64,000 bases of DNA from an uncultured archaeon (GCA_964407715.1 CAYOWP010000001.1:62652-126651), one strand, 5' to 3'; shown: positions 1,997 through 56,430, counted from the stretch's first letter. A program made the numbers and translations. Notes: generated from the letters alone by a model not told the origin.

Positions 1997-3223
1997 ATGA
2001 AGAGCATGGCATATAAATATAGAAAGGATTTAAGAGTTGCTGCATTTTTAGCATATAAAAGTTTATTATTCAACAAAAAAAGTTTGTTTTTAATTTCATG
2101 TATAATAGGGCTAACATATTTGAGCGGTATATTTATTGGTGGTGTGATATATGGTATGAAGTTACGTGTAGAAAGAGAAGCAATAGATACTACATTAGGG
2201 AATATTATGCTTTTACCAAAGGAAAAAGAGGAATACATATATGATGTTGATGAAATATTGAAGAAGCTAACAGGAATTCCGGGGATTATTGCTGTCTCTC
2301 CAAGATTTATAATGCCTGCAACATTAATGGATAAGGATGGAAAAACAACAACAGTATTTCTAACAGTGGTAGAGCCTGAAAAGGAAAGGAAGGTTAATTA
2401 CGCGTTTGATAACATTATTGAAGGAAAGTGCCTCTCTAAAGGAACACAAGATGGCATAATGATAGGAGGAGTAGTAACAAAGAAATATGGTATTTTTGAA
2501 TCTGTTGAGAAGATAGATGTTTCTGCTGGGGATAAAGTTAAGGTAATTACTCCTTTTGGTGAGAGAGAAATGAAAATCTTGGGTATTTTTAAAGCAGATT
2601 TGATGGATGTAGAGCTATATACCTATGTTAATAAGGAGCAAGTAAGAAGAGTATTTAATTTAAATCCTGAAGACTTAAATGTTGCTACGCAAATAGTAAT
2701 CAAGACAGGAAAAAATGTAGATGAGAAGAAAATGGTAAAGATTCTTAAGCAATTAGGGATAGATGCTAGGATACATACATGGAAAGAAGAATTGGGTATA
2801 TTGGATCAGTTTACAGGTAGTTTGATGATCATGAATAAAATAGCAATAATTGTTAGTATTATTGTTGCTTTTGGAACAATATATATTATAATGTATATCA
2901 ATGCATTACAAAAGAGATCACAACTAGGTATTCTAAAAGCTGTGGGAATAAAGAGCAATGTTATTATTCTTTCATATACACTTCAAGCATTTATATATGG
3001 GTTGTGCGGTATATTAGCAGGGCTTATATTGATAAAGTTGGCAGTTAAATACTTCACTTTCTATCCTATTCATACTCCAATTGGAGGAGTAACTCCAGTA
3101 ATCCAAATGGATGTTATGTGTTTTAATGCCTTATTTATATTACTTTCCAGTATATTTGCTGGATATTTTGCCTCGAGAGGTATTGTTCATGAGAGAATAC
3201 TTGATATGATATTCAAAGGATGA
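1997..3223 (+). CDS. ABC transporter permease, FtsX/LolE/MacB type
   Basis: N-terminal TM, large extracellular loop, LGILKAVG motif and three C-terminal TMs. Confidence 0.85.
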   Translation: MKSMAYKYRKDLRVAAFLAYKSLLFNKKSLFLISCIIGLTYLSGIFIGGVIYGMKLRVEREAIDTTLGNIMLLPKEKEEYIYDVDEILKKLTGIPGIIAVSPRFIMPATLMDKDGKTTTVFLTVVEPEKERKVNYAFDNIIEGKCLSKGTQDGIMIGGVVTKKYGIFESVEKIDVSAGDKVKVITPFGEREMKILGIFKADLMDVELYTYVNKEQVRRVFNLNPEDLNVATQIVIKTGKNVDEKKMVKILKQLGIDARIHTWKEELGILDQFTGSLMIMNKIAIIVSIIVAFGTIYIIMYINALQKRSQLGILKAVGIKSNVIILSYTLQAFIYGLCGILAGLILIKLAVKYFTFYPIHTPIGGVTPVIQMDVMCFNALFILLSSIFAGYFASRGIVHERILDMIFKG

Positions 3224-3942
3224 TGATTATGCAAAAAGGGAAAACTAAGGAAAATGTTATTGTTAAGGTACGTAATTTAAAAAGATATTATGGTAAAGGT
3301 AGCGCCTTAACTAAGGCCTTGGATGGAGTTGATTTTGAGATTTATAAAGGAGAGTTTTTAGGGATCATGGGCCCTAGTGGTTCTGGCAAATCTACTCTTT
3401 TACATTTATTAGGCTTATTGGATAAGCCTACGGATGGAGAGATTTATTTTTTAGGAGAGAGAATTGATACATTACCTGAGCATAAAAAAACAAGATTTAG
3501 GTTGGAAAAGATTGGTTATGTTTTTCAACAATACCGATTGATACCAGAGTTAAGGGCATATGAGAATGTTATGCTTCCTTTTGTTATGCGAACAGGAGAT
3601 TTTATAAAAGCCAAGAAATGCGCGATAGAGATATTAAAGAAAGTAGGTATTGGATATGTGTGGGATCACTATCCATTTGAGCTTTCAGGTGGTGAACAGC
3701 AAAGGGTTGCTATAGCAAGGGCATTGGTTAATGATCCTGTTATTATATATGCGGATGAACCTACAGCAAGTCTTGATACGAATTCTGGTGAAATAATAAT
3801 GAATCTTTTTATGGAAATAAATAAGAAGTATAATCATACTGTAGTGGTTGTAAGTCATGAGCCAGAGCACAAACGATATTTTGATAGAATCATCTACATT
3901 AGAAATGGTAAAATAGAGAGGATTGAGAGGAGAAAAGGATAG
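3220..3942 (+). CDS. ABC transporter ATP-binding subunit, LolD/MacB type
   Basis: GPSGSGKST, LSGGEQQRVAIARAL, ADEPT, SH switch. Confidence 0.92.
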   Translation: MMIMQKGKTKENVIVKVRNLKRYYGKGSALTKALDGVDFEIYKGEFLGIMGPSGSGKSTLLHLLGLLDKPTDGEIYFLGERIDTLPEHKKTRFRLEKIGYVFQQYRLIPELRAYENVMLPFVMRTGDFIKAKKCAIEILKKVGIGYVWDHYPFELSGGEQQRVAIARALVNDPVIIYADEPTASLDTNSGEIIMNLFMEINKKYNHTVVVVSHEPEHKRYFDRIIYIRNGKIERIERRKG

Positions 3943-6886: not shown

Positions 6887-8269
6887 ATGGGCAGTGAGCA
6901 TTTTAGTTTGTCTTTTATTTTCTTTATTATTGTGATAATGATAATGCTTTTTATAGAGAAAAAGAACTTTAAGAGAGAGGGAATAGTGTTTCTAAGAAGG
7001 AGCTCTAAAGGTTTAGCATTTTTGAAAAAACTTTCTAAGAAGTATGGGAGAATAATAAATTATCTTGGCGATTTTGCCGTGGTTTTGAGTTATGGTTTGT
7101 TCTCATGGAGATATATATTCAAAGAAAGCAAAAATAAGAGATATGCCTTTTGCTTATTAGCAATATATTTCTTTATAGCGTGGTTGGTGTATGATCACTT
7201 TAAGTTCTTGGAATCTGCCATACTTGGGATATGGAACTCAGAAAGATATTCCTCCTTAATTATTAATATATCAAGATTATTTGGATATGGGCTTGGAATA
7301 GGAGGTTTAGCTTTTTTCTTACTTTCAATAGGCTCTTTCTCCATTCTTTACAATTCTTTGTTCCTCCTTAAAGAGGTGCAACCTCCTCTTCAAATAGTTC
7401 TTCCTATAAGTGTTCCATCAAAATACAATCTTCCAGTCCTAAGCGTGCCATTTGATAAATGGCTTATAAGTGTGGTTGTGCTTGTAATAGTGCATGAATT
7501 CGCTCATGCGATAATGTCAGCATCCAACAATATTAGGGTTAAGAGTGTTGGTTATGGATTTATGCTGTTTTTGCCTTTAGGATTTGCAGAGCCTGATGAG
7601 AGACAATTAAAAAAGAGCAAACTCATTAATAAGCTCCGCGTCTATGCTGCAGGGAGTTTCTCAAATTTTATTTTTGCATTAATATTTGGCCTTCTTTTTA
7701 TTCCTTTTAATTTTGGGTTAAAGCATATGGATGTATATGAGTTTCAGGGAATATGCTATAATGGACTTGTAAAGTGGACCAATGCACCATCAGTATTGCC
7801 TGTTAATGGAACTATAACCCACATTGATGGAGTACAATTGCATAATTTCACTCATTTTGCAAAAGTTTTGAATTCATATCATCCTGGCGAGAATATAACA
7901 CTCACAATAAATGGCACCAACTATACTGTTACCTTATGTGAAAGTCCTAAGAATTCATCTTTGCCTTTTATAGGGATAATGCATGTAGGAGAGAGATATG
8001 AGATGAAGGAAGATGTAAAAAACAATCTTCTTAAGAAAATAACCTTCTATCTTCTCCTTTATTTTGGTTCTTTATTTATGTGGATAAGTCTGCTCAATTT
8101 AGGTATAGGAATCGCGAACTTACTTCCATTAATACCACTAGATGGAGGGCTTATGATTAAGGAAATGTTGGAAAGGCATAGAGCAATATATCTTACTATC
8201 TTTATCTTGACTTTCCTTCTATTAGTCTTTTCTTTGTTTGGTAAATTTATCATCAAGATATTCCTATGA
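6887..8269 (+). CDS. Site-2 membrane metalloprotease (M50) with PDZ-like insert
   Basis: HEFAH, AGSFSN, NLLPLIPLDGG; multiple TMs. Confidence 0.88.
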   Translation: MGSEHFSLSFIFFIIVIMIMLFIEKKNFKREGIVFLRRSSKGLAFLKKLSKKYGRIINYLGDFAVVLSYGLFSWRYIFKESKNKRYAFCLLAIYFFIAWLVYDHFKFLESAILGIWNSERYSSLIINISRLFGYGLGIGGLAFFLLSIGSFSILYNSLFLLKEVQPPLQIVLPISVPSKYNLPVLSVPFDKWLISVVVLVIVHEFAHAIMSASNNIRVKSVGYGFMLFLPLGFAEPDERQLKKSKLINKLRVYAAGSFSNFIFALIFGLLFIPFNFGLKHMDVYEFQGICYNGLVKWTNAPSVLPVNGTITHIDGVQLHNFTHFAKVLNSYHPGENITLTINGTNYTVTLCESPKNSSLPFIGIMHVGERYEMKEDVKNNLLKKITFYLLLYFGSLFMWISLLNLGIGIANLLPLIPLDGGLMIKEMLERHRAIYLTIFILTFLLLVFSLFGKFIIKIFL

Positions 8270-9703
8270 AGGCCTGGGTATTCGTGCTCCTTCATCTCTT
8301 AAGTGCCTCAATATCTCAATACCATAACGATACACAAGATTATTTAAAAGTGCTTCTGAGTTGTCCATCATCTTAATCTCTTCCTTTATGATTTTTGGAT
8401 CAACATATCCAAAATAATCCAAGGCTATTTTTAATTCTTTATGTTTTTTGGCATACTTTGGAAGAGCAATACATTTTGCTATTGCATCTGCTGCCTGTCT
8501 AAAAGACTTTGCCCCTCCCTCCACACCTAATGGATGGCCATGTACTCCACCACCTCCTTGAAATACAAAATCTTTGCCATGAATAACACTCAAAGCATCC
8601 CCCTTGCCGGCATCTAACCCACCAGATGCTACTGGCATGACAGGCTTAATATGAGGAGAATACTTAAAATCCAAACATCCCAAGTATGGTATTTTTCTAA
8701 CTTTTCTGTTTACTGCTAACTCATGAAGATATGATATGTATTTTGATGACCCCTCCATTTTGCCAACGCCTGTACCAATATGAAGCTGATCAACACCAAG
8801 CATTCTGTATATCTTAAGCAAAATCTTGAAATCATATCCATACACTCCTCTATGCATAGCAGCATATCCTGCTCTATGTGCATGAACTATCAATCTTTTC
8901 TTATGCGCATATTTCACAAGCTCATAAGTTAAAGCAAACCCTAACATGAACACATCAAGCATTACACATTTTCCTCCTCTTTCTGCAATATAATCTATTC
9001 TCTCGTACATTCTATGAATGTCTTGATCAGTGATATTGCTTGCGTAGAGCTTCCTCTCGCCGGTTTTGTTCTCGGCTTTTGACATCTTATCAAAAACCAA
9101 ATCAAAGCGATCCCTCCATCTGCAAAAATCTTGATCAACTAAATTCTCATCATCCTTTACAAAATCCATGCCATTAACATAGCATTTATATGCCACGTCA
9201 CTCCATTCCTCTGGACTTAATCCAACCTTTGGTTTAACAATCGTACCAACATGAGGTCTCCTTGTTTTTGTTGTGCCTATATACTTTCTAATACCATCTA
9301 ATCCATATTTTGGACCCGGAAACATATTTTGGAATCTTTTTGGAAACTTTATGTCAAGAATCATCAATTCCTCTATTTCTTTTAAACCATATACATTGCC
9401 CAAGACAGAGGCAAGGAATTGTAAGAGATTCTTGCTATCAAAATGCTCGTATGGATATGCAAGATAAACAAAACCACTATTATTTTTTACATGCACAAGA
9501 TGATACACTCTTGCGCGATAATCACGAAAGATATTCTCGCTCATAGTGCTTATTTTTGTCCACGTACCTACAGAGCTCTCTGCTGCTAATCCCTCTGCCA
9601 AAACCTCCAAGGGAGCATCTCCTTTTACCCATGCCAATACCAAAAAATCGCTTTCTTTTGGTACATAATTTAAATCCAAATAAAGATATCCACCATAACT
9701 CAT
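8264..9703 (-). CDS. rbcL: RuBisCO large subunit, form III-like
   Basis: AAESSVGTW, LGN, GTIVKPKVGL, DFVKDDE, HAHRAG, QLHIGT, GKMEG, SGG, GGG: full catalytic set. Confidence 0.92.
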   Translation of the reverse strand: MSYGGYLYLDLNYVPKESDFLVLAWVKGDAPLEVLAEGLAAESSVGTWTKISTMSENIFRDYRARVYHLVHVKNNSGFVYLAYPYEHFDSKNLLQFLASVLGNVYGLKEIEELMILDIKFPKRFQNMFPGPKYGLDGIRKYIGTTKTRRPHVGTIVKPKVGLSPEEWSDVAYKCYVNGMDFVKDDENLVDQDFCRWRDRFDLVFDKMSKAENKTGERKLYASNITDQDIHRMYERIDYIAERGGKCVMLDVFMLGFALTYELVKYAHKKRLIVHAHRAGYAAMHRGVYGYDFKILLKIYRMLGVDQLHIGTGVGKMEGSSKYISYLHELAVNRKVRKIPYLGCLDFKYSPHIKPVMPVASGGLDAGKGDALSVIHGKDFVFQGGGGVHGHPLGVEGGAKSFRQAADAIAKCIALPKYAKKHKELKIALDYFGYVDPKIIKEEIKMMDNSEALLNNLVYRYGIEILRHLRDEGARIPRPS

Positions 9704-9724
9704 ATATTGCGCCTCCTTAATTAT

Positions 9725-10582
9725 TCATATTAGCTCATCAAGAGGATTCCTAACTTTTCTTAATTCCTCTAAACTAACCTTGGTATATATTTGGGTGGTT
9801 TGTAAGTTGGCATGTCCAAGGAGTTCTTGGATCTTCCTTAAACTTTCACCTTGCTCCAACAAATGTGTTGCAAATGTATGCCTGAGTACATGAGGAGTTA
9901 CCTCTTTTTGAATTGCTGCTTCTTCCCTTAATCTTTGAATAATCTTTTGAACCAATCTAACAGAAATGTGGTTTCTTTTATGCTTGGAAAAGAACACATA
10001 ATCTTCGCCAACAAGATTATGCTTGTTGAAGTATCTTCTTAGAAGATCAACAATTTTCTCTCCTAAAACGACAATACGATCTTTTTTCCCTTTTCCTCCC
10101 CTGACCCTTAAGATTCTTTCATTCAAATCAAAATCTTTAACTTTAAGATTAACCAATTCACTCACTCTTAAACCAGTGGAATAAAGGAGGAGGCATATCA
10201 TTTTGTCTCTGTCTTTTTCAGCAGTATTGATGAGCCTTTTAACCTCTTCTCGCGTTAGCACTATTGGTAGCTTTTTGTCTCTTTTTGGTGTAGGTAAATC
10301 CTCTTCGCTAATTCTAAGGTTTTTGATTCTTTTTAAGTAGAAAACGATTGCTGCTTTAACTGCAGCAATGCTTGATGGAGTATAGCCTTCTTCATCTATA
10401 AGATATGATAGAAATCTCTTTGCAGAATCTACAGATATCTTTAATCCTTTCTTTTCAATGTATCTAAGATACATATTCACATGAATAAGATATGACTTCA
10501 AGGTTTGCTCGGTATATCCACTCAACAAAATCTCTGACCTAAGCTTCTCCAATTCCTGCTGAATCCTTTTATTTGTTTCCAT
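9725..10582 (-). CDS. xerA: Tyrosine recombinase XerA
   Basis: SAM-like N-domain; TGLRVSEL, GKGKKDR, HVLRH, LGH, TTQIYT; no integron-integrase insertion. Confidence 0.88.
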   Translation of the reverse strand: METNKRIQQELEKLRSEILLSGYTEQTLKSYLIHVNMYLRYIEKKGLKISVDSAKRFLSYLIDEEGYTPSSIAAVKAAIVFYLKRIKNLRISEEDLPTPKRDKKLPIVLTREEVKRLINTAEKDRDKMICLLLYSTGLRVSELVNLKVKDFDLNERILRVRGGKGKKDRIVVLGEKIVDLLRRYFNKHNLVGEDYVFFSKHKRNHISVRLVQKIIQRLREEAAIQKEVTPHVLRHTFATHLLEQGESLRKIQELLGHANLQTTQIYTKVSLEELRKVRNPLDELI

Positions 10583-10585
10583 ATT

Positions 10586-11590
10586 TTATGGCACCTCTAT
10601 CCTTTCTAATATTTCATCAATTATGGTGTCTGTGTTCAATCCTATTGCCTTACCTTCATAGTTCAATATGATTCTATGTCTCAAGACATCATGAGCCACA
10701 TATCTCACATCTTCCGGCAAGACATATGGTCTTCCCTCTAAGAAAGCCTTTGCTTTTGCAGAGATGTATAGAGCAATATTGGCTCTTGGAGATCCTCCCC
10801 AGGCAATGTATTTTCCATATTCTATGCCATAATTCTCAGGATTTCTTGTTGCATCTACTATATCAACAATATATTTTTTGATTTCATCTGATGCATATAT
10901 TCTTTTTGTAATTTCTTGCATCTTTGGAAAATCTTCTTTATTAAACACTGGCATGATTTGAAAACTCTCAAATTTATGAATAGTAGTATTCTTATCAAGA
11001 ATGATTAATTCTTCCTCTTTTGTTGGATAATACACATATACTTTAAAAAGAAACCTATCAACTTGAGCTTCTGGTAATGGATACGTACCTTGCTGCTCTA
11101 TCGGGTTTTGAGTTGCCATCACAAAAAAAGGTTCCTCTAAAGTAAAGATTTCCTTACCTATAACCACCTGTCTCTCCTGCATAACTGAAAGCATAGCACT
11201 CTGCACCTTAGGCGGTGCTCTGTTAATCTCATCTGCTAAAATGAAATTAGCAAATACAGGTCCTTTAACAACATAAAATCCCCTGTTTGGATCATAAGCA
11301 GTTATACCTGTGATATCTGCTGGCAAAAGGTCAGGGGTAAACTGGATTCTTTGAAATTTTGCATTCCTAACAGTTCTTGCTATTGTCATAACAAGCAGCG
11401 TTTTGGCTAATCCAGGTGCTCCCTCTAAGAGAATATGCCCTCTTGATAGCATTGATAAAATAGCAGCTTCAAGCACTTTTTCCTGTCCAACAAAAACTTT
11501 TCTCACTTCCTTTTTGAACATATCTATTTTTTCATTATAAAACTCAATTTCCTCTGAGATTTCTCTCATCATTGCAGAAAGCTGTACCAT
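10586..11590 (-). CDS. moxR: MoxR-family AAA+ ATPase (MRP type)
   Basis: GAPGLAKT, RIQFTPDLLPADITG, ADEINRAPPKVQSA, ATQNPIE, LPEAQVDRF. Confidence 0.92.
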   Translation of the reverse strand: MVQLSAMMREISEEIEFYNEKIDMFKKEVRKVFVGQEKVLEAAILSMLSRGHILLEGAPGLAKTLLVMTIARTVRNAKFQRIQFTPDLLPADITGITAYDPNRGFYVVKGPVFANFILADEINRAPPKVQSAMLSVMQERQVVIGKEIFTLEEPFFVMATQNPIEQQGTYPLPEAQVDRFLFKVYVYYPTKEEELIILDKNTTIHKFESFQIMPVFNKEDFPKMQEITKRIYASDEIKKYIVDIVDATRNPENYGIEYGKYIAWGGSPRANIALYISAKAKAFLEGRPYVLPEDVRYVAHDVLRHRIILNYEGKAIGLNTDTIIDEILERIEVP

Positions 11591-13892: not shown

Positions 13893-13904
13893 GAAGATTA
13901 TGCG

Positions 13905-14565
13905 TTTAACCTTAAAAAGCGATTTGAAACAGATAACCTTTTTAAAGCAGTTAGCTGCTTAAAAAACCTTTGTGTTATTGAGATTTTCCCGTTAACAAAT
14001 TAAAAATTTTTAATAAAAATGGTTAACGGGAAGATATCACTATCACAAGCACATTACAGCATGCTACCCTCTTAAAAAAGGTTAGCTGCTTGAAAACGCT
14101 AAATGAAAGGGTTATGCTTCCCGTTAACAAATTATTTAAAAAATAAAAAATGGTTAACGGGAGGAAATCGCTATCATATAAAGTTTTGCAAGCATGCTAA
14201 CCTCTACAAAAGGTTAGCTGCTTCTTAACCGCTTTAGAAAGGTTAGCTGCTTCAATACGCCAAATGAAAGGGTTATGCTTCCCGTTAACCAATTATTTTA
14301 AAAATAAAAAATGGTTAACGGGAGGAAATCGCTTTCTCAAGGCACATCGCAGCATGCTAACCTCTTTTCAGGTTAGCTGCTTCAAACCGCTCGAGAAAAG
14401 GAGCTATGCTTTGATGCGCTATTGATAAGGTATGCTTCCCATTAACAATTTTTTAAATAATTTGGTTAACATGAGACCTCTCTTATCAATAGCACATTAA
14501 AGCATGGCATCCTTTCTTGAGCGGTTTGAAGCAGCTAATCTTTTAACCCTTAATTTGGTTAATAT
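13905..14565. repeat. Tandem array of phased palindromic modules
   Basis: Units TGGTTAACGGGA...CTTCCC(G/A)TTAAC at 14020-14130, 14151-14291 and 14312-14448 with central GCATGCTAACC-N-GGTTAGCTGC; AT linkers; partial units at both ends. Confidence 0.92.
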
Positions 14566-14636
14566 GCCGCAACTTACAGATTGACAAAAAAATTTGATAT
14601 AATTTTAAAAAATTATTTTTACATAATATAATCTTT

Positions 14637-17471: not shown

Positions 17472-17619
17472 GGCATTGTCCAATAATTCTTTATTGTTAA
17501 GCGGAAACTTAACGCGCAAATAGCACTTATAGCAGTAATCGCATTAGCTCCATAAGGTTAGCTTTCTCTGATGCGCTTCTTTGAAATGTTACTTTCATAG
17601 GGAATTATTGGACAACACC
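17472..17619. mobile_element. Complete 148-bp MITE with 18-bp TIRs and 9-bp TSD
   Basis: Left GGCATTGTCCAATAATTC, right GAATTATTGGACAACACC; flanks TGGCTTTAT (17463-17471) and CGGCTTTAT (17620-17628). Confidence 0.88.
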
Positions 17620-18135
17620 CGGCTTTATTTCTATCTTAGTGTTGCATCCTTTGACATCTTCTCCAAATAAATATCCCAACCATAAACGAGGATATCCGAG
17701 ATAAGGTATTCTATAGATTACTTTTCCCTCTACATTCTCAATTGGTATTAGCCAAGGGTCAGGTTGAGAGTTATTATCTCCCCATGCAACCACATATTTA
17801 TGCGAATCTTCAAGTAATTTCTTATATGCTCTATGAACTATCAACCTATCCTGAAGAGGCTCATAATATACAATAATTGTAGAATTTGGATCCTTCCATT
17901 TTTCATTAGCAACAATCTCATCCCACGAGACACCTTTAACAATGATTACATCTCCTCTCTCCAATGTTGGTACCATTGAACAAGACACCACAACTAACAT
18001 TGGATAATCTGTTCCCAAAGCCAATCCCAAACCTTTATAAAGACAAACTGCTAAAATAAAAGCGATTATTACATCCTTAAGGTTTTCCCAAACATATGCT
18101 TTTAGAAACCTTATGATCTTTTTTCTTTCTGACAT
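17605..18135 (-). CDS. sec11: Signal peptidase I, archaeal/Sec11 type (S26B)
   Basis: VVSCSMVPTLERGD, IVHR, WGDNN, GKV, IPYLG; last four codons and stop come from the MITE. Confidence 0.88.
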   Translation of the reverse strand: MSERKKIIRFLKAYVWENLKDVIIAFILAVCLYKGLGLALGTDYPMLVVVSCSMVPTLERGDVIIVKGVSWDEIVANEKWKDPNSTIIVYYEPLQDRLIVHRAYKKLLEDSHKYVVAWGDNNSQPDPWLIPIENVEGKVIYRIPYLGYPRLWLGYLFGEDVKGCNTKIEIKPGVVQ

Positions 18136-19553: not shown

Positions 19554-19628
19554 TGTTTAAATTTTCCCAAGAGATTATAGGAGCAAGCGCATATTTATTT
19601 TGGAAAAATTTTAGAAAGGTTTAGAATT

Positions 19629-19826
19629 CAGTTAACAGAAAACATATCCAATTCATCAGGAGGATTTTAGTGTTGTAATACTTAAAAAGCGGTTAGGAGC
19701 GGGTATCCTTTTACATGGATCATCCTGCTATAATATCCTAATGATAGAGATATTTTCCTGTTAACTATTTTATTAAAGAATTTGTAACCATATCAAAAGC
19801 ATTCCGTATAGCAGTTAACCTTTTAA
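19629..19826. repeat. Degenerate phased palindromic module(s)
   Basis: CAGTTAACAGAAAACATA...GATATTTTCCTGTTAAC, internal GCGGTTAG, trailing GCAGTTAACC. Confidence 0.6.
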
Positions 19827-19835
19827 GGAAATGAG

Positions 19836-19862
19836 GGCATTATCCAATACTTCTTTATTGTT
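19836..19862. mobile_element. MITE remnant (left TIR only)
   Basis: GGCATTATCCAATACTTCTTTATTGTT flanked by direct AAATGAG (19829-19835 and 19863-19869). Confidence 0.65.
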
Positions 19863-20045
19863 AAATGAGATCTATAAGATAACATTATTTTCATTTTATA
19901 TTCTCCATTATATATTTTTAAGTATATTAACATAATTATGTTTAATCACTACAATATATATTTTGAAATGTTAAAATCACTTAAAAGTAGTGAAAAGGAA
20001 TTTTGTGGCTCCTTTATCTTTCATATGTTTATGCGAACAAAAATT

Positions 20046-20590
20046 CAGTTAACGAAAAAATGTGCTTCTTGATATCTCTCAGGTTTGCAGCATGGTAATC
20101 TCAATAAAGGGTTAGCTGCTTTCTAACCGCTTCGGAAAGGTTAGTATGTTCTGATATGCTATTGATAAAGTACTCTTCCTGTTAACCAATATTTTATTTT
20201 GAACCCTCTCGCAGCATACTACCCTCTACAAAAGCCATCAATGTGTTCGCATAAGGTTTATTATGCGAATTTTATTACTTGGTTAAGGGAAAGCATAGCC
20301 ATATCCAAAAACCACTTTCAAGCAGCTAACCCTTTATTGAGGTTACCATGCAGCAATGTGGTTGTGAAAGTGATTTCCTCCCATTAACCATTTTTATTTT
20401 GGTTAACGGGCAGCATAACCTATTCATTCAGCATATCGAAGCAGCTAACCTTCTTAAGCGGTTAGTATGCTGCAATGTGCCTTAAAGAGGTGATATCCTC
20501 CCGTTAACCTTTTATTTTAAATAAAAATGGTTAAGGGGAAGAATCCCTTCTTAAAAAAAGTGTATCGAAGCAGCTAACCTTTATAGAAGG
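20046..20590. repeat. Array of phased palindromic modules surrounding the dif-like site
   Basis: Unit 20046-20188 and partial 20211-20234 in one orientation; 20280-20390, 20400-20510 and half unit 20528-20590 in the other. Confidence 0.9.
20244..20271. other. Candidate dif (Xer recombination) site
   Basis: TGTTCGCATAA-GGTTTA-TTATGCGAATT: 11-6-11 layout, symmetric arms resembling the E. coli dif XerC arm GGTGCGCATAA; xerA is 10 kb away. Confidence 0.8.
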
Positions 20591-20674
20591 AATTGTTCGC
20601 ATAAAAATATTTCCTTTAAGATATATTTTGCAGTGTATTAACATATTTTTGTTGAAATACTATGAAATATATAT

Positions 20675-21007
20675 TTGATGATATATAATTGGGGACATAG
20701 AAATCGTAAAAATTTTAAAACTTTTCTATTTAAAGAAAAAATAAATATTCCTACATATTATGGGATGTTAGAATATAAAGGACATTATTTTCTTATCATG
20801 GAAAAAATAAATGGAATAACTTTAGCAGATCTCTATAACGACAAGGAGATTCAATATAAGATAATAAGAAACATTGAAAAGAAACTAGAAAAGATCCCTA
20901 AAATAAAAGAAGTTAAAGACAGACATGCATATAATGTTATGATAAATAACAAAAACAAACTTTATCTTATTGATTTAGAAGGAATAAAGATAAATGATTT
21001 CGCATAA
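20675..21007 (+). pseudogene. Truncated protein-kinase-like (RIO/APH-like) ORF
   Basis: IPTYYG, LIMEKING.TL, DRHAYNVM, LYLIDLE; N-lobe ATP-binding part and ATG start missing. Confidence 0.55.
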
Positions 21008-23389: not shown

Positions 23390-23620
23390 TCAACCTCCTT
23401 TAATTCTTTTTCTAAGAGGATTTTTGTGTTTGATTGTTTTTAAGTGTATTTCCTTTGCTTTCCTATATTTCTTTGTCCATTTTACTTTTGCAGGATTTCT
23501 CATATGAAAGTTCGCATAACATTTATGAGAGCAGAAGTAAAATACTTCTCCATTATTTTTTACAAGCATTATTCCTTTACCCTCTTTCACATTATTACCA
23601 CAAAATGCACATATAAACAT
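23390..23620 (-). CDS. rpl24e: 50S ribosomal protein L24e
   Basis: CAFCG...GKGIMLV...FCSHKC...KVKWT. Confidence 0.93.
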   Translation of the reverse strand: MFICAFCGNNVKEGKGIMLVKNNGEVFYFCSHKCYANFHMRNPAKVKWTKKYRKAKEIHLKTIKHKNPLRKRIKGG

Positions 23621-47005: not shown

Positions 47006-47566
47006 TCATATAGAATCAGAACCACTATCAAAATCCTCTTCTTTGATATCTCTCTTAGCAAAAAATTCCCTTAACTCATTCTCATTCTTTAATCCAAAGT
47101 ATCTTAAAAATTTCTTTGTAATTCTAAGTACATTATAGTTCCCAACCTTCTCAACGCTCACAAACCCTCTATTAATAAGCTCCTTTATTTGTTCATATGC
47201 TCTGTGTCCTCTTATTCTTACAACTTCTTTTTGTTTTATGGGGGATCTATATGCTATCAATGCCAATGTTTGTAATGTTGCTCTAGAGAAATCTTTATAA
47301 GGTGCTAAGTGCTCCACATACTTAAGATATGCTTCTCTTATTGTTAAATCATAAGATTCATTAGGAAGTTTCCTTATTGAAAAAGGCAAATTATTCTCCT
47401 TAAATTTTTTATCTATGCTTAAAAGCAAACTCTCTATATGATCTTTTGTTAGTTTCTTTGATGAATTCTTATTATTGAGCACATTATATAGCTCATGAAC
47501 CTTAAGCGGATTCTGAGAAACAAATAATGCAGAAATTATTATGCTCTCAATTTCATCAAACATCAT
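47006..47566 (-). CDS. scpB: SMC-Scp complex subunit ScpB
   Basis: SALFVS, TLALIAYRSP, RIRG, TKKFLRYFGL. Confidence 0.92.
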   Translation of the reverse strand: MMFDEIESIIISALFVSQNPLKVHELYNVLNNKNSSKKLTKDHIESLLLSIDKKFKENNLPFSIRKLPNESYDLTIREAYLKYVEHLAPYKDFSRATLQTLALIAYRSPIKQKEVVRIRGHRAYEQIKELINRGFVSVEKVGNYNVLRITKKFLRYFGLKNENELREFFAKRDIKEEDFDSGSDSI

Positions 47567-48321
47567 CCATCCTCCTCCTTAAAAGGATATATTTTTATCT
47601 CATCAAATGGCCTTTCTTGAACACATCTTATTCTCTCCTCATTGTTCAGATGTAACACAGCTTCTAAAGTAATTATCTTATCATAGGCATCTCTTTTTTC
47701 AAGTAATTTGGAAAATATGGCAACATGATTTACATTAAACATCTTAATTATCTTCTCATATGTCTTCTCTATCATTTCACGTATATCAAATTTGTTCATC
47801 TCAAATATGAATTCCTCATCTCTAATGGCTTTTCTTCTTGATTTCAATGCCTTCTCCAAGGCATCAATGAGCTCGTGAAGAGTAACCTTGCGTTTAATAG
47901 GTTTTTTAATTGGCAAAAAGATTGGAGGGAGATTTATAATCCTAACATTCTCATTACCTTCATTCAACAATTGATTTAGCATTTCAGAATTTATTTCAAT
48001 ATGCTCCCCATCATCCTCGGATGCTTGGCTTTCATGATCTTCCTTAAAGAATTCTGACTTCATTCTATATATTAAGGCAGCAATAAGTATCATTTTAGCG
48101 GGTATTTTGAGATCTCTACACCTAAGCTCCTCTAAACATCTTAGAAATCTTTCATTAAGTAAAGTAAGGTCAATATCCCAAGGATCCATATCATGTGTAA
48201 GATGCTCAATAACATCTCTCCATTTTTCATTTAAAATCATCTGGAGAATCTTTTCATGAACATCATCACTATTTTCGCATAACTCTTCATATCTATGCTT
48301 GGATATGCCTATAGGTATCAT
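47563..48321 (-). CDS. scpA: Kleisin ScpA
   Basis: MDPWDIDL, AALIYRMKS, RKVTLHELI, QERPFDEI. Confidence 0.9.
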   Translation of the reverse strand: MIPIGISKHRYEELCENSDDVHEKILQMILNEKWRDVIEHLTHDMDPWDIDLTLLNERFLRCLEELRCRDLKIPAKMILIAALIYRMKSEFFKEDHESQASEDDGEHIEINSEMLNQLLNEGNENVRIINLPPIFLPIKKPIKRKVTLHELIDALEKALKSRRKAIRDEEFIFEMNKFDIREMIEKTYEKIIKMFNVNHVAIFSKLLEKRDAYDKIITLEAVLHLNNEERIRCVQERPFDEIKIYPFKEEDG

Positions 48322-50420: not shown

Positions 50421-50905
50421 TGGTTAATGGGAAGCATAACCCATCAAGAGAGCATATCAAAGCAGCTAACCTTTTGTAGAGGTTAGCATGCTGTAATATG
50501 CTATTGAAAAGGAGATTTCTTCCCGTTAACCATTCATTGAATAAATAAAGAATGGTTAACGGGAAGTATAGCCATATCCAGAGCATATCAAAGCAGCTAA
50601 CCTTTTGTAGAGGTTAGCATGCTATAATTTGGCTTTGAAAAGCGATTTCTTCCCGTTAACCATTTTTTATTTAAATAATAAAAATTGGTTAAGGGGAAGA
50701 ATACCTTCTTTAAAAAGCATATCAAAGCAGCTAACCTTTTGTAGAGGATTAGCATACTGTAATGTGGAGTTATGAAGGCAACATCTTCCTGTTAACCATT
50801 TGTCTCGCAGCAGCTAACCTCCTATAGAGGTTAAGAAGCAACTAACCTTTTAAAGCTGTTACTATACTGTAAAACCTTTATAGGAAGGATATCTTTCTGT
50901 TAACT
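50421..50905. repeat. Tandem array of phased palindromic modules
   Basis: Units 50421-50532, 50553-50662 and 50686-50798 (period 132-133 bp) plus partial 50807-50905; central GCAGCTAACCTTTTGTAGAGG(A)TTAGCAT in all three. Confidence 0.95.
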
Positions 50906-53154: not shown

Positions 53155-56100
53155 TTATATAGAATACAAATCCTCATCCATCTCTATTTTAGGTTTTGAA
53201 GAAGAATATTTGATCACAACATACACTACTATCACCATTAAAATTACCAAGAATAAGAAAATAGCCAAATATTTGCCATAAGGTGGTTTTCTCTCTGGCA
53301 TAGAAAGAAATTCCTTATAATATTGCAACTCATCTATGCCTTGTTTATATACATCTAAATCTCCAACAGATGCTATAGAGAGATATTCTTCATAGAAATT
53401 ACATATATTTTCATAATCAAGCACATCTTGTCCACTAAGATGGCTTCTTATCTTTTTTACATTTTCTTCATTTACGCATATCTCATTATATAAGGACTCA
53501 AACCTCTCCTTTAGCTCTTCATATGTAGAAAGATAATATTGCGTATAATTGCATCTTTTAAGTTCTCCTCTATAAGTAGTTGCGTTCGCATAAAGCTCAT
53601 TTAAGGTTTCTCTTGATTCAATATCTATCAAATCTATTGTTCTTCTTTTTTGTTTAGCGCTTGGCAACCAGACTTCACATATCTCTGAGATATCCAAATT
53701 CTCACAACTTTTATTATTAAGAATATCACAAAGATACTCTATCTCATCCAATATCTCATCCAATTCCATCAATTTATCTTGAAGAGGTGATTCTTCAACT
53801 TTCTTTATGCTTGCTAATGTTTCATAAGTTAATATCACAAATGAAACATCATATTTTGTACGTAACAAAATGAATGTAAGTGTCACATTTTTACCGCATT
53901 TTCCTAAGATGTCATTTCTTATCTCAATTGGTATTCTATAATTCCCAGGTTCTGATATTACATATAACTCTTTATTTTCATATATTGTGTGAGGACTACA
54001 CATCTCAGATGATATCCTAATCTTAAGTCCTATTGTGCCCATATTATCAACATTGGTAAGCATATTTAAGGTTCCTGAACCAATGCCTTTATTTTTATCA
54101 TATAAAATAACTCTATCATCTAATGATAAAGATATATCCCTATTTGCTGAAATTATTTTTTTACGTATTGTAAAATTAATTAATGTTTTATCACCATACC
54201 CTATCGTTACTTTATTGCTTGAATTCAAATTCGCTCCAAATAGATATAGGGTTAGCATATATTCTTCTCCTGAAGAGAACATATTCTCGTTGTTATCTTT
54301 ATCTAATACAGGTTTAATATTTATCATGGCAGGATTATTATTTATTAATACCTTAAAATAGTCCATATTAAGATTTTGATCCCCTATATTTTTTAGATAA
54401 AGGTTTATTTTCTGAATATCATATATGTTATCAAACTCAATATCTATAATTTCGTTTTTCCTTAGTTTTCTCTTAAAACCTCTATCAGAAATATATGCTG
54501 TTAAGTGCATTCCGCTTAATCTTTCAAGAATCTCTATGCACTTTTCAAATACAGCAAGATAGTCATTTATTGTGTACTCAAAAGAAAGGCAATTAAATCC
54601 ATACTCAAAGATATAATTTGATGGTATCTCAAAAGTGGTATTTATAGAGTACATATCATTATGTGATGTATAAGAAACCTCAACACTCTCTTTATCTTTT
54701 AGAGAAGTGTATATTTTTGCATCTTCAAGAGATCCTGTTATTGGCTGTGAAAATAAGCTAATAACCTCTGCTCCCTCTCCCTTAAAGAATTCAGTAGAAG
54801 AGATATAAGTATATGAAGGTATAATCATAAAATCAAGGGGGATAGAAATTCTTTTATGTATGATTTCTCCATTTACATTTCCATCTATCTCCAAATTAAG
54901 CATAGGAGTGGTTAAAGAGCAAGTGATATTTGGAGGCAATCTAATCAAATATCCCGTAATTCTTCCATTATTGTCTATCATATAATTCTCGCTAGTTATT
55001 TTTTCTATAGAAAGATCATCAATGTTGCAATTATTATCTCCTATATTTAGAATCTCAACAGTAAGGGAATTATCATATACAACATTGCCATGTTTATCTT
55101 CAAGATAAGGAACAAAAAAAGCCAGAATATCACTACCCGCAAGATATGCCTCTGGGTGTATATGCTCCACATACTCTCTAACTGATGTGATGGTATAATT
55201 TAACTTAACATTGTATGCAAATTCATCAGAGATTTCAATCTCTCTTGAGGTATTATATTCTATTATATCTCCATATCCATTCCTATATTTTACCACATAT
55301 ACAATACCTATTGATTTACCAGAAAATGATTTATCTATCGCATACACCATTTCATCATCATTTTGTGGATTATAAGGTATTGTACTTAATATTTGTCCAT
55401 TATCCCTATCAACAATCTGAAAATATCTCTCCTCTATTGTTCCGCTATCCCCAATATCATATTCATCATAATTTTCCATTTTTATTGTTAAGTTCTGCCC
55501 ATAATAATATCTTCCATCCAAATCTTTAATACCCTCTATTATCAAATCTCCAGAATATACTTTTGGATAAAACAATACAGATTTTGATATACAATTATTT
55601 GATGTATCACCTCTACAATACTCTGCTAAAGATACTCCTTGAGGTAATTCTCCCATCACAATTAAAGGAGATATGAGCAATGATTTCTTTGGAGTTCCTG
55701 TTCGTGGGATAGCAATATCAAACAAAAAGCACGTTCTATCTTCACATAAATTCTCAGAAATTTCTGATGATATGAAGTGAAGCGAATACGTCTCTCTCAT
55801 ATATAATATGCTCATCGGATTTTCTAATGATGAAAGATATATTGGATGTTGGGTATTGATATCAATCACATATAATTTAAGCAACATATTTTCTCCAGGT
55901 GATTTTGAGGTATAGTAAACAGAATCTGCATAACCTCCAGATAATCCGCTATATTTTTTGATGATGTCAGAGCTTTCAAATAAAATATCATAATAATTGT
56001 TTTCTGATAACACATAATCAAGTTTATCTTTTAAGTTCACTCCACAATAAAGGTATATGATGCCGGTACTCACTATATTCTTTGTATCAACACAATATAA

Positions 56101-56430
56101 GCCTGCAATATTATTGTAAGGAATAAGATTTGGAGCATTATTATTGCTATCTCTAATGTTAAAGTTATTACATGTAGCTCTAAAGCATATGTACTTATTT
56201 TGTTGTGCAATAGAGGAAACCTGCGTAATTATAGCATTATTTGTAAGCTCATCAGTACCTCCATATATGATTGATGGAATACCAAAAACCTCAATACCTG
56301 TAGAGGAGTTATAATACACATCATTTTGAGGAATTTCAGAGCTTGATATTCCAAAACTTAAAGAAAAGTATGAAATCAAAAATAACACAAATGAGAACAC
56401 AAACCTTAAACTCTCTTTTTTCTTAACCAT
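53155..56430 (-). CDS. Large cell-surface protein with signal peptide and C-terminal TM
   Basis: 1091 aa; beta-rich Cys-containing body, helical stalk, TM near C-terminus. Confidence 0.7.
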   Translation of the reverse strand: MVKKKESLRFVFSFVLFLISYFSLSFGISSSEIPQNDVYYNSSTGIEVFGIPSIIYGGTDELTNNAIITQVSSIAQQNKYICFRATCNNFNIRDSNNNAPNLIPYNNIAGLYCVDTKNIVSTGIIYLYCGVNLKDKLDYVLSENNYYDILFESSDIIKKYSGLSGGYADSVYYTSKSPGENMLLKLYVIDINTQHPIYLSSLENPMSILYMRETYSLHFISSEISENLCEDRTCFLFDIAIPRTGTPKKSLLISPLIVMGELPQGVSLAEYCRGDTSNNCISKSVLFYPKVYSGDLIIEGIKDLDGRYYYGQNLTIKMENYDEYDIGDSGTIEERYFQIVDRDNGQILSTIPYNPQNDDEMVYAIDKSFSGKSIGIVYVVKYRNGYGDIIEYNTSREIEISDEFAYNVKLNYTITSVREYVEHIHPEAYLAGSDILAFFVPYLEDKHGNVVYDNSLTVEILNIGDNNCNIDDLSIEKITSENYMIDNNGRITGYLIRLPPNITCSLTTPMLNLEIDGNVNGEIIHKRISIPLDFMIIPSYTYISSTEFFKGEGAEVISLFSQPITGSLEDAKIYTSLKDKESVEVSYTSHNDMYSINTTFEIPSNYIFEYGFNCLSFEYTINDYLAVFEKCIEILERLSGMHLTAYISDRGFKRKLRKNEIIDIEFDNIYDIQKINLYLKNIGDQNLNMDYFKVLINNNPAMINIKPVLDKDNNENMFSSGEEYMLTLYLFGANLNSSNKVTIGYGDKTLINFTIRKKIISANRDISLSLDDRVILYDKNKGIGSGTLNMLTNVDNMGTIGLKIRISSEMCSPHTIYENKELYVISEPGNYRIPIEIRNDILGKCGKNVTLTFILLRTKYDVSFVILTYETLASIKKVEESPLQDKLMELDEILDEIEYLCDILNNKSCENLDISEICEVWLPSAKQKRRTIDLIDIESRETLNELYANATTYRGELKRCNYTQYYLSTYEELKERFESLYNEICVNEENVKKIRSHLSGQDVLDYENICNFYEEYLSIASVGDLDVYKQGIDELQYYKEFLSMPERKPPYGKYLAIFLFLVILMVIVVYVVIKYSSSKPKIEMDEDLYSI

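Follow-up and report, generated by a model that had tools for sequence, protein, structure and literature searches.

Strictly oriented solitary dif arms around a probable chromosomal dif site of an uncultured archaeon

In archaea, chromosome dimers are resolved by XerA alone, without FtsK. XerA of Pyrococcus abyssi is reported to bind and cleave single-arm half-site substrates in vitro (PMC3646895), and a ChIP-seq study of Thermococcus kodakarensis XerA reports signal at dif only (PMC11840125). In the account given by the latter study, an SMC boundary is located at dif in T. kodakarensis and is independent of both XerA and dif; SMC-dependent boundaries at dif regions are described for several euryarchaea (PMC11840125; PMC11894783). 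The same two papers state that in Bacillus subtilis XerD unloads Smc-ScpAB at XDS sites (PMC11840125; PMC11894783). AIMS, as presented in their source, are defined for bacteria (PMC5993296), and Cortez et al. present their ASPS as skewed words of 4 nt, which are unrelated to dif arms (PMC2958812).

The locus compared here with these systems lies in a window of 64,000 nucleotides, which corresponds to positions 62652-126651 of contig C1 in an assembly from an uncultured archaeon (GCA_964407715.1, CAYOWP010000001.1). Coordinates are those of the window unless they carry the prefix C1. The assembly (G000) has 16 contigs that total 898,521 bp, a G+C content of about 32%, and an estimated completeness of 92%. 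Over 43.7 kb, C9 matches part of contig C8 at 100% identity, which brings the non-redundant size closer to 855 kb. The window contains archaeal markers, namely the genes for L21e, L24e, eRF1, an Rpb4-like subunit, diphthamide synthase, and a RuBisCO large chain. The analysis took in five family members (G000-G004), of which G001 belongs to the same genus as G000 and G002 to another genus. The order-wide comparison covered 42 genomes.

The core site is found at 20244..20271 and has no strand. It reads TGTTCGCATAA-GGTTTA-TTATGCGAATT, an 11-bp arm, a 6-bp spacer, and a second 11-bp arm, as could be read directly from the sequence. The arms are palindromic at 9 of 11 positions, and the whole forms a 28-bp imperfect inverted repeat with the 11-6-11 layout of archaeal Xer/dif sites. 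A search with a tolerance of up to three mismatches in the arms and with spacers from 4 to 10 bp found a single full site in the 898,521-bp assembly; the two other candidates for a second dif, each with three arm mismatches and the wrong spacing, were rejected. With exact arms, the full site occurs as one copy in 6 of the 42 genomes of the order, with a different spacer in every one. At two mismatches or fewer, the site was recovered from 13 of 41 relatives, and one family has the arm variant GTCGCATAA. The palindromic core is present in at least 119 GTDB contigs, mostly bacterial, which indicates a common Xer-type core. Extra arms of any kind accompany 29 of the 122 full-site loci listed, and the arrangement of a minus-strand arm on the left with plus-strand arms on the right appeared, among the loci listed, only in the family's own L009, L010, and L050.

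The site is located in an ORF-poor region of 1.1 kb (19554..20674, no strand), between a DUF655 gene and a kinase-like fragment. No RNA family was detected in 19554-20674 by Rfam at the gathering threshold. The three tRNAs that Rfam found in the window all lie outside this region, and an RNA gene was therefore discarded as an account of the ORF-free DNA. The region does contain palindromic repeat units. One unit is found left of dif (20046..20187, minus strand), and those on the right occupy 20281..20592 on the plus strand, comprising two full units (20281-20389 and 20401-20509) and a truncated one (20529-20592), spaced 119-129 nt start to start. The local array is a cluster of a dispersed palindromic repeat with about 110-130 nt per unit; the 10-nt core of this repeat has 195 copies and is present on all 16 contigs. 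The content of these slots is variable in the family. Between the inner arms (see below) and dif, G000 has repeat units, whereas G001 and G003 have small ORFs that are unrelated. A comparison of the small ORFs beside dif in G000, G001, and G003 found no homology among them, and Pfam gave no match for four small dif-adjacent ORFs.

The base composition of C1 changes at this site. On the left of dif the raw GC skew is +0.066, and on the right it is -0.111. After correction for gene orientation, GC3 skew in 20-kb bins along C1 takes the values +0.065, +0.061, +0.038, +0.045, -0.056, -0.173, and -0.209; the sign switches in the bin that contains dif (-0.056), which fits a terminus. A further skew calculation gave the same contrast between left and right. 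Genes converge weakly on dif, with 46 on the plus and 32 on the minus strand on the left, and 20 and 27, respectively, on the right. Orc1/Cdc6 genes are located away from the dif contig, on C2 and C7. The skew profile of the orc1 contig C2 is flat, with no switch, and skew does not place the origin in this fragmented assembly. The full site is single, its arms are kept in relatives with a varying spacer, the XerA gene is single, and the skew changes sign. On these sequence features, the 28-base site is very probably the chromosomal dif, situated at the terminus. The skew and site features also fit a terminus dif as Cortez et al. define it in their report (PMC2958812).

The only tyrosine recombinase gene of the assembly is xerA (9725..10582, minus strand). 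Its product matches Pfam Phage_integrase with E = 5.4e-48 and the NCBIfam model recomb_XerA_Arch (NF040815) with 261.2 bits, where the cut-off is 220. PF00589 and PF13495 each have one match in the genome, which is xerA in both cases; thus, the PF13495 profile search found no second protein with a XerA-type N-terminal domain. C1 encodes Smc as well as ScpA and ScpB. The scpB gene (47006..47566, minus strand) and scpA (47563..48321, minus strand) lie in the window, and smc is found outside the window on the same contig as dif (C1:2891-5434). No FtsK was found in G000: PF01580 has no match above the cut-off, and an FtsK gamma domain is absent. The two weak PF01580 matches are a HerA helicase, which the genome does encode, and a T2SSE-type ATPase.

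An earlier note on this DNA, made from the sequence alone, had described an 11-6-11 site inside a repeat array, regarded it as the chromosomal dif, and listed three extra arms around it. The site and the array are both real, although the array belongs to a repeat that is dispersed through the genome. The note's view of the site as the chromosomal dif is well supported by the genome-wide count of one full site, the conservation in relatives, the single XerA gene, and the skew. The three arms are also present. The inner left arm lies at 20028..20040 on the minus strand (TTTATGCGAACAA on the plus strand), and the inner right arm, TTGTTCGCATAAA, lies at 20593..20605 on the plus strand, adjoining the truncated repeat unit. 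As the note had claimed, the two are perfect inverted copies over 13 bp; a longer version extends to 18 nt at 94%. The third arm, ATTTCGCATAA (20997..21007, plus strand), provides the TAA stop codon of ORF 20675-21007, as had been proposed; the similarity of this ORF to Bud32/ABC1 kinases is weak and sub-threshold. Sequence inspection revealed no partner arm at 6 bp from the inner solitary arms; for the left one, the match at that spacing is 3 of 11 positions, by eye. The inner 13-mers are identical in G001 and lie on the same sides of dif there, and the outer partner arms are absent.

The tally of three arms proved to be an undercount. There are 10 solitary arms in the window and 16 on C1. 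Left of dif, further arms were found on the minus strand at 3584..3592 (in ORF 3220-3942, antisense) and 17798..17806 (in the signal-peptidase gene 17605-18135, sense). Right of dif, further arms were found on the plus strand at 23511..23519 (in the gene for ribosomal protein L24e, 23390-23620, antisense), 35651..35659 (in ORF 34201-36582, sense), 48274..48282 (in scpA, 47563-48321, antisense), 53585..53593 (in ORF 53155-56430, antisense), and 61170..61178 (in ORF 60442-61584, sense). The 9-mer that these arms share, TTCGCATAA, has 12 copies in the window against 0.31 expected, and the maximum in 100 shuffles was 2. Across the genome it has 27 copies, 18 of them on C1. The solitary copies number 25, of which 16 are on C1, a contig that makes up 14% of the assembly (C1 versus the rest, p = 1.4e-8). 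Markov models of order 1-4 predict 0.9-1.9 copies for C1, i.e., the enrichment is 10- to 20-fold. A degenerate motif was ruled out, as all 27 one-mismatch variants lack both enrichment and polarity. A longer shared motif or a dispersed element around the arms was likewise rejected, because the flanks of the 27 copies are unrelated.

The solitary arms of C1 are strictly polar. All nine on the left of dif (C1 2991 to 82680) are on the minus strand, and all seven on the right (C1 83247 to 123821) are on the plus strand. When the 2551 9-mers that have at least eight copies on C1 were compared without bias, the arm 9-mer was the most polar, at 16:0, just short of Bonferroni significance; it had been named in advance by the earlier note, ahead of the scan. 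The G-rich strand of each replication arm reads TTATGCGAA, and thus the orientation flips exactly at dif. The G-rich strand carrying TTATGCGAA is presumed to be the leading strand. Six other contigs of G000 contain copies of the motif; on five of them its orientation agrees in sign with the corrected skew, and one contig is neutral.

Most of these arms are part of genes. On C1, 14 of the 16 solitary arms are inside ORFs (called crudely, by taking the longest ORFs that do not overlap, with a minimum of 90 aa), including the genes of L24e, smc, and scpA; nine are antisense to their host gene and five are sense, and all 14 are consistent with the orientation relative to dif. This placement in both senses under one dif-relative orientation indicates that polarity tracks the replication arm, not the gene. 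The codons that produce the arms are rare: GCG accounts for 7% of Ala codons and TCG for 3.2% of Ser codons. To control for protein sequence, all peptide positions able to encode the 9-mer without a change of the protein were collected, and their use was counted. Among dif-consistent positions on C1, 12 of 28 are used, against 0 of 30 in the opposite orientation (Fisher, 3.4e-5) and 6 of 234 on other contigs (consistent versus other contigs, 2.3e-9). Within C1 the use is flat with distance from dif (5/9, 4/9, and 3/10) and shows no gradient. These synonymous choices argue strongly that the solitary arms are a polar motif kept by selection at the DNA level. The test can be applied to any genome in which the dif arm is known.

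The enrichment recurs in the family. The numbers of 9-mers versus those of the reversed control are 27/11 in G000, 25/7 in G001, 34/5 in G002, 28/9 in G003, and 11/5 in G004, counts that are not independent because the five genomes are kin. The dif contigs of G001 and G003, both short, carry a minus-strand arm, dif, and then one plus-strand arm in G001 and three in G003. Family contigs that have two or more copies and no full or near-full dif carry all copies on one strand in 19 of 20 cases, the exception being contig C16 of G004, with a minus-strand copy and then a plus-strand one. In G002, the motif bases were masked and all 89 contigs were each oriented by their corrected GC3 skew. Here, 28 of the 9-mers obey the skew rule of G000, three violate it, and the contigs of the other three are ambiguous (p = 4.6e-6); of the synonymous opportunities, 22 of 83 are taken at consistent and 3 of 61 at inconsistent positions (p = 6.5e-4). 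The motif in G002 is apparently spread genome-wide. Turnover of individual sites is quick. Of 21 solitary sites in G001, 13 align to G000 and eight do not, and none of the 13 is kept there; several of the aligned sites differ from G000 by synonymous changes alone. Beyond the family, the polar arm pattern fades. In f2, the arm is enriched in G005 (18 vs 7) and G017 (15 vs 5), but polarity is broken by one arm on the dif contig of each. G010 shows no arm enrichment. In f3, enrichment is about twofold for that family's own arm variant and absent for the f1 arm.

Which protein reads the arms may be considered from their sequence. To our knowledge, XerA is the only protein known to have this arm specificity, and it is somewhat more likely than not to be the reader of the solitary arms. 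XerA monomers would bind the solitary arms, and a bound monomer would mark the terminus and the direction for a machine that tracks along DNA, since a bound XerA monomer is asymmetric and could thereby convey direction. In the preferred reading, the response would be an orientation-dependent stalling or unloading of Smc-ScpAB when it reaches the terminus region. That SMC is the responding machine is proposed tentatively, by analogy; stalling or unloading is preferred on the precedent of XerD at the XDS sites of B. subtilis. The possibility that in this FtsK-less DPANN family XerA monomers on gene-embedded, oriented arms act as CTCF-like, direction-dependent barriers for Smc-ScpAB or for forks is given clearly less than even odds. 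For the explanation as a whole, i.e., a terminus dif as the target of XerA, selected polar solitary arms, and the proposed reader and machine, the chances appear evenly balanced. A fork trap and a KOPS-like guide fit the geometry of the arms as well as SMC stalling or unloading does; SMC is ranked first, at well below even odds.

The polar arms could instead be a KOPS-like code that steers a translocase, HerA or an unknown pump, to dif, thus replacing FtsK and KOPS, while XerA shares the recognition sequence or serves as the adaptor. The flip of strand polarity at dif and the enrichment on the terminus contig match the definition of AIMS/KOPS as given in its source (PMC5993296), and HerA, which is encoded here, was raised as a possible FtsK analogue in the report of Cortez et al. 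(PMC2958812). Moreover, the apparently genome-wide polar spread in G002 agrees better with a KOPS- or Chi-like code than with unloading sites confined to the terminus. G000 nevertheless has neither FtsK nor an FtsK-gamma domain, and it lacks a second protein with a XerA-type N-terminal domain. Its 25 solitary copies compare with hundreds or more for AIMS/KOPS words, according to the same source (PMC5993296). On balance, this code seems unlikely. We know of no translocase that reads the arm of a recombinase.

The arrangement of sites also resembles a polar fork trap, in which arm-bound XerA, or another protein, would admit replication forks to the terminus and block their exit, as Tus-Ter and RTP-Ter do. 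The traps of Escherichia coli and B. subtilis have a geometry of opposed groups of polar sites. On C1, opposed low-copy polar groups of nine and seven arms flank dif, the inverted inner pair lies a few hundred bp away from it, and in G000 the set is restricted to the terminus contig. The apparently genome-wide spread in G002 is unlike a local trap, however, and we know of no tyrosine recombinase that arrests forks and of no archaeal fork trap. A trap of this kind is judged quite unlikely.

The earlier note had offered two readings of the extra arms, either as scars of Xer-mediated insertions or as additional XerA binding sites. The first treats the arms as scars or junctions of elements such as IMEX, pdif modules, or integron-like cassettes. 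It draws on the stretches that separate the inner arms from dif, which are wholly different among G000, G001, and G003, and on the several ORFs that end at or against an arm. Variable cargo is found solely in the slots adjoining dif in these three genomes, and the full or hybrid sites in non-coding DNA that characterize IMEX, pdif modules, and cassettes are not what the arms of G000 represent. The 14 arms within ORFs include those of housekeeping genes in sense and antisense, the arms arise from synonymous codons in one orientation, the inner arms lack a partner arm at 6 bp, and two species share the same inner 13-mers although the outer partners are absent. Arms of a single orientation that are made of codons of the L24e, smc, and scpA genes indicate that insertion scars cannot explain the arm set, and as a general account the scars are very unlikely. 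A junction origin is possible for the small number of arms that lie no more than about 1 kb from dif, three to five at most. Additional XerA sites were the better half of the earlier reading, which had missed the contig-wide, strictly polar set of these putative sites.

Finally, it is highly improbable that the pattern has no function and is a by-product of skew, codon usage, gene orientation, or assembly, or that the switch point is an origin: one strand of the motif carries a single G in excess of C, there is a weak convergence of genes on the site, the orc1 contig shows no skew switch, and MAG assemblies can be chimeric, but the 10- to 20-fold excess over Markov expectation with flat one-mismatch variants, the uniform dif-consistent orientation of in-gene sites that are mostly antisense (9 of 14), a codon test that controls for protein sequence, and the replication of the result in another genus (G002) all speak against a by-product, the skew sign and gene convergence fit a terminus, and an artificial fold-back is excluded because nothing is common to the two sides of C1 except dispersed repeats (no longer than 411 bp and no more than 74% identical), a family that also ties C1 to all other contigs.

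If XerA-bound arms do act as direction-dependent barriers for Smc-ScpAB or for forks, this would be the first archaeal sequence-defined system for terminus organization or for the direction of dimer resolution. A polar motif identical to the XerA arm opens the direction of dif recombination, and its confinement to the terminus, to tests that need one protein and a single 9-mer. The arm code would also link archaeal Xer to the organization of SMC activity by Xer and the dif region. The polar arms suggest a built-in direction signal for the end region of the chromosome, without the usual bacterial reader. A full-text literature search, judged by titles and the openings of abstracts, returned no description of polar solitary dif arms in archaea.

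Compared with the known systems, the core site is closest to archaeal XerA/dif as reported for P. abyssi and T. kodakarensis (PMC2958812; PMC3646895). It shares with them a single-copy 28-bp site of 11-6-11 layout, one non-adjacent XerA gene, and a skew inversion. The dif of T. kodakarensis is described in a 1.9-kb intergenic region (PMC11840125), and that of G000 likewise lies in a large intergenic region. Unlike the dif of P. abyssi and T. kodakarensis, the G000 site has an arm of the widespread bacterial-type core and is accompanied by polar solitary arms through the flanking genes, which the reports consulted on those species do not describe. With IMEX, pdif modules, and integron cassettes, the locus has in common a variable content beside dif and arms that abut the ends of ORFs; in contrast to these elements, its arms are single rather than full sites, and most are in conserved genes tens of kb away. 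The likeness to Tus-Ter and RTP-Ter is one of geometry alone, i.e., opposed low-copy polar groups that flank dif, whereas the sites of G000 are the arms of a recombinase.

The closest parallels of the solitary arms are bacterial. AIMS/KOPS, as characterized in their source, show the same bias to the presumed leading strand, flip at dif, and quick turnover (PMC5993296). As for a rise in abundance towards the terminus, the solitary arms are concentrated on C1 in G000, with no gradient inside that contig, and are apparently genome-wide in G002. AIMS/KOPS differ in that no FtsK was found in G000, its 9-mer occurs in tens rather than hundreds of copies, and the motif is identical to the recombinase's own arm. 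Like XDS sites, the arms are solitary, here putative, Xer sites that stand apart from dif; they lie in the terminus region, and the genome has genes for Smc-ScpAB. For G000, the likeness as Xer sites is one of sequence. The arms are distinct from XDS in belonging to an archaeon with one recombinase, in being exact copies of the dif arm, in lying mostly within genes, and in their strict polarity, and in one relative they are apparently spread genome-wide. In sum, the dif site itself is ordinary and the polar arm code appears to be new. Judged by their sequence and placement, the solitary arms look like AIMS/KOPS in distribution and like the XDS sites of XerD in kind.

Beyond the family of the source archaeon, six contigs among the matches listed from the scan of GTDB contigs carried the full dif site with additional arms beyond it, on the minus strand at +32 and on the plus strand at +88/+89, namely loci L012, L016, L026, L058, L095 and L118. 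The record titles shown for these loci spanned Prevotella, Actinobacteria and Sarcina as well as an archaeon of horse-faecal origin. The six loci probably represent one widespread mobile element that bears several Xer arms.

Unusual arrangements were also found among the relatives. In G004, a genome of the same family, a minus-strand arm is followed 25 kb further on by a plus-strand arm (G004:C16:3300-28307), and a search of this genome returned no dif at up to two mismatches; the interval between these opposed arms may harbour a variant of dif that escaped recognition. In G002, which belongs to another genus, one arm of the top dif candidate (G002:C26:4277-4300) is degenerate, with 2 mismatches. 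Despite this degenerate candidate, the arm motif is more strongly enriched in G002 than in any other genome of the family, and the true dif may be absent from the assembly. In G017, from family f2, four same-strand arms lie within about 450 bp (G017:C13:13642-14090), a cluster that may reflect a repeated gene or an array of the cassette type.

Within the source assembly, contig C9 is redundant: it is 100% identical to contig C8 across 43,696 bp, in reverse orientation. Across the whole of contig C1, which contains the window, an orientation bias around dif was also observed for the dispersed palindromic repeat, examples of which occupy window positions 13903-14570, 20046-20592 and 50421-50905; the repeat word AAGCAGCTAA showed an 18:2 orientation split on this contig. 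On contig C3, the orientation of the repeat was out of step with that of the arm motif.

The terminus contig C1 carries all three of smc (C1:2891-5434), scpA and scpB (both within window 47006-48321). A single solitary arm occurs in smc (C1 2991) and another in scpA (window 48274); by a rough estimate, with approximately 0.4 such matches expected, they are not significant. The xerA gene is flanked by genes for a RuBisCO large chain and a MoxR-type AAA ATPase, all three on the minus strand (window 8264-11590). A TrmB-family regulator is encoded 10 kb from dif (window 30137-30988, minus strand); it scored 56.6 bits against the TrmBL2 model, far under the cut-off. In the dif region of T. kodakarensis, the SMC roadblock is TrmBL2 (PMC11840125).
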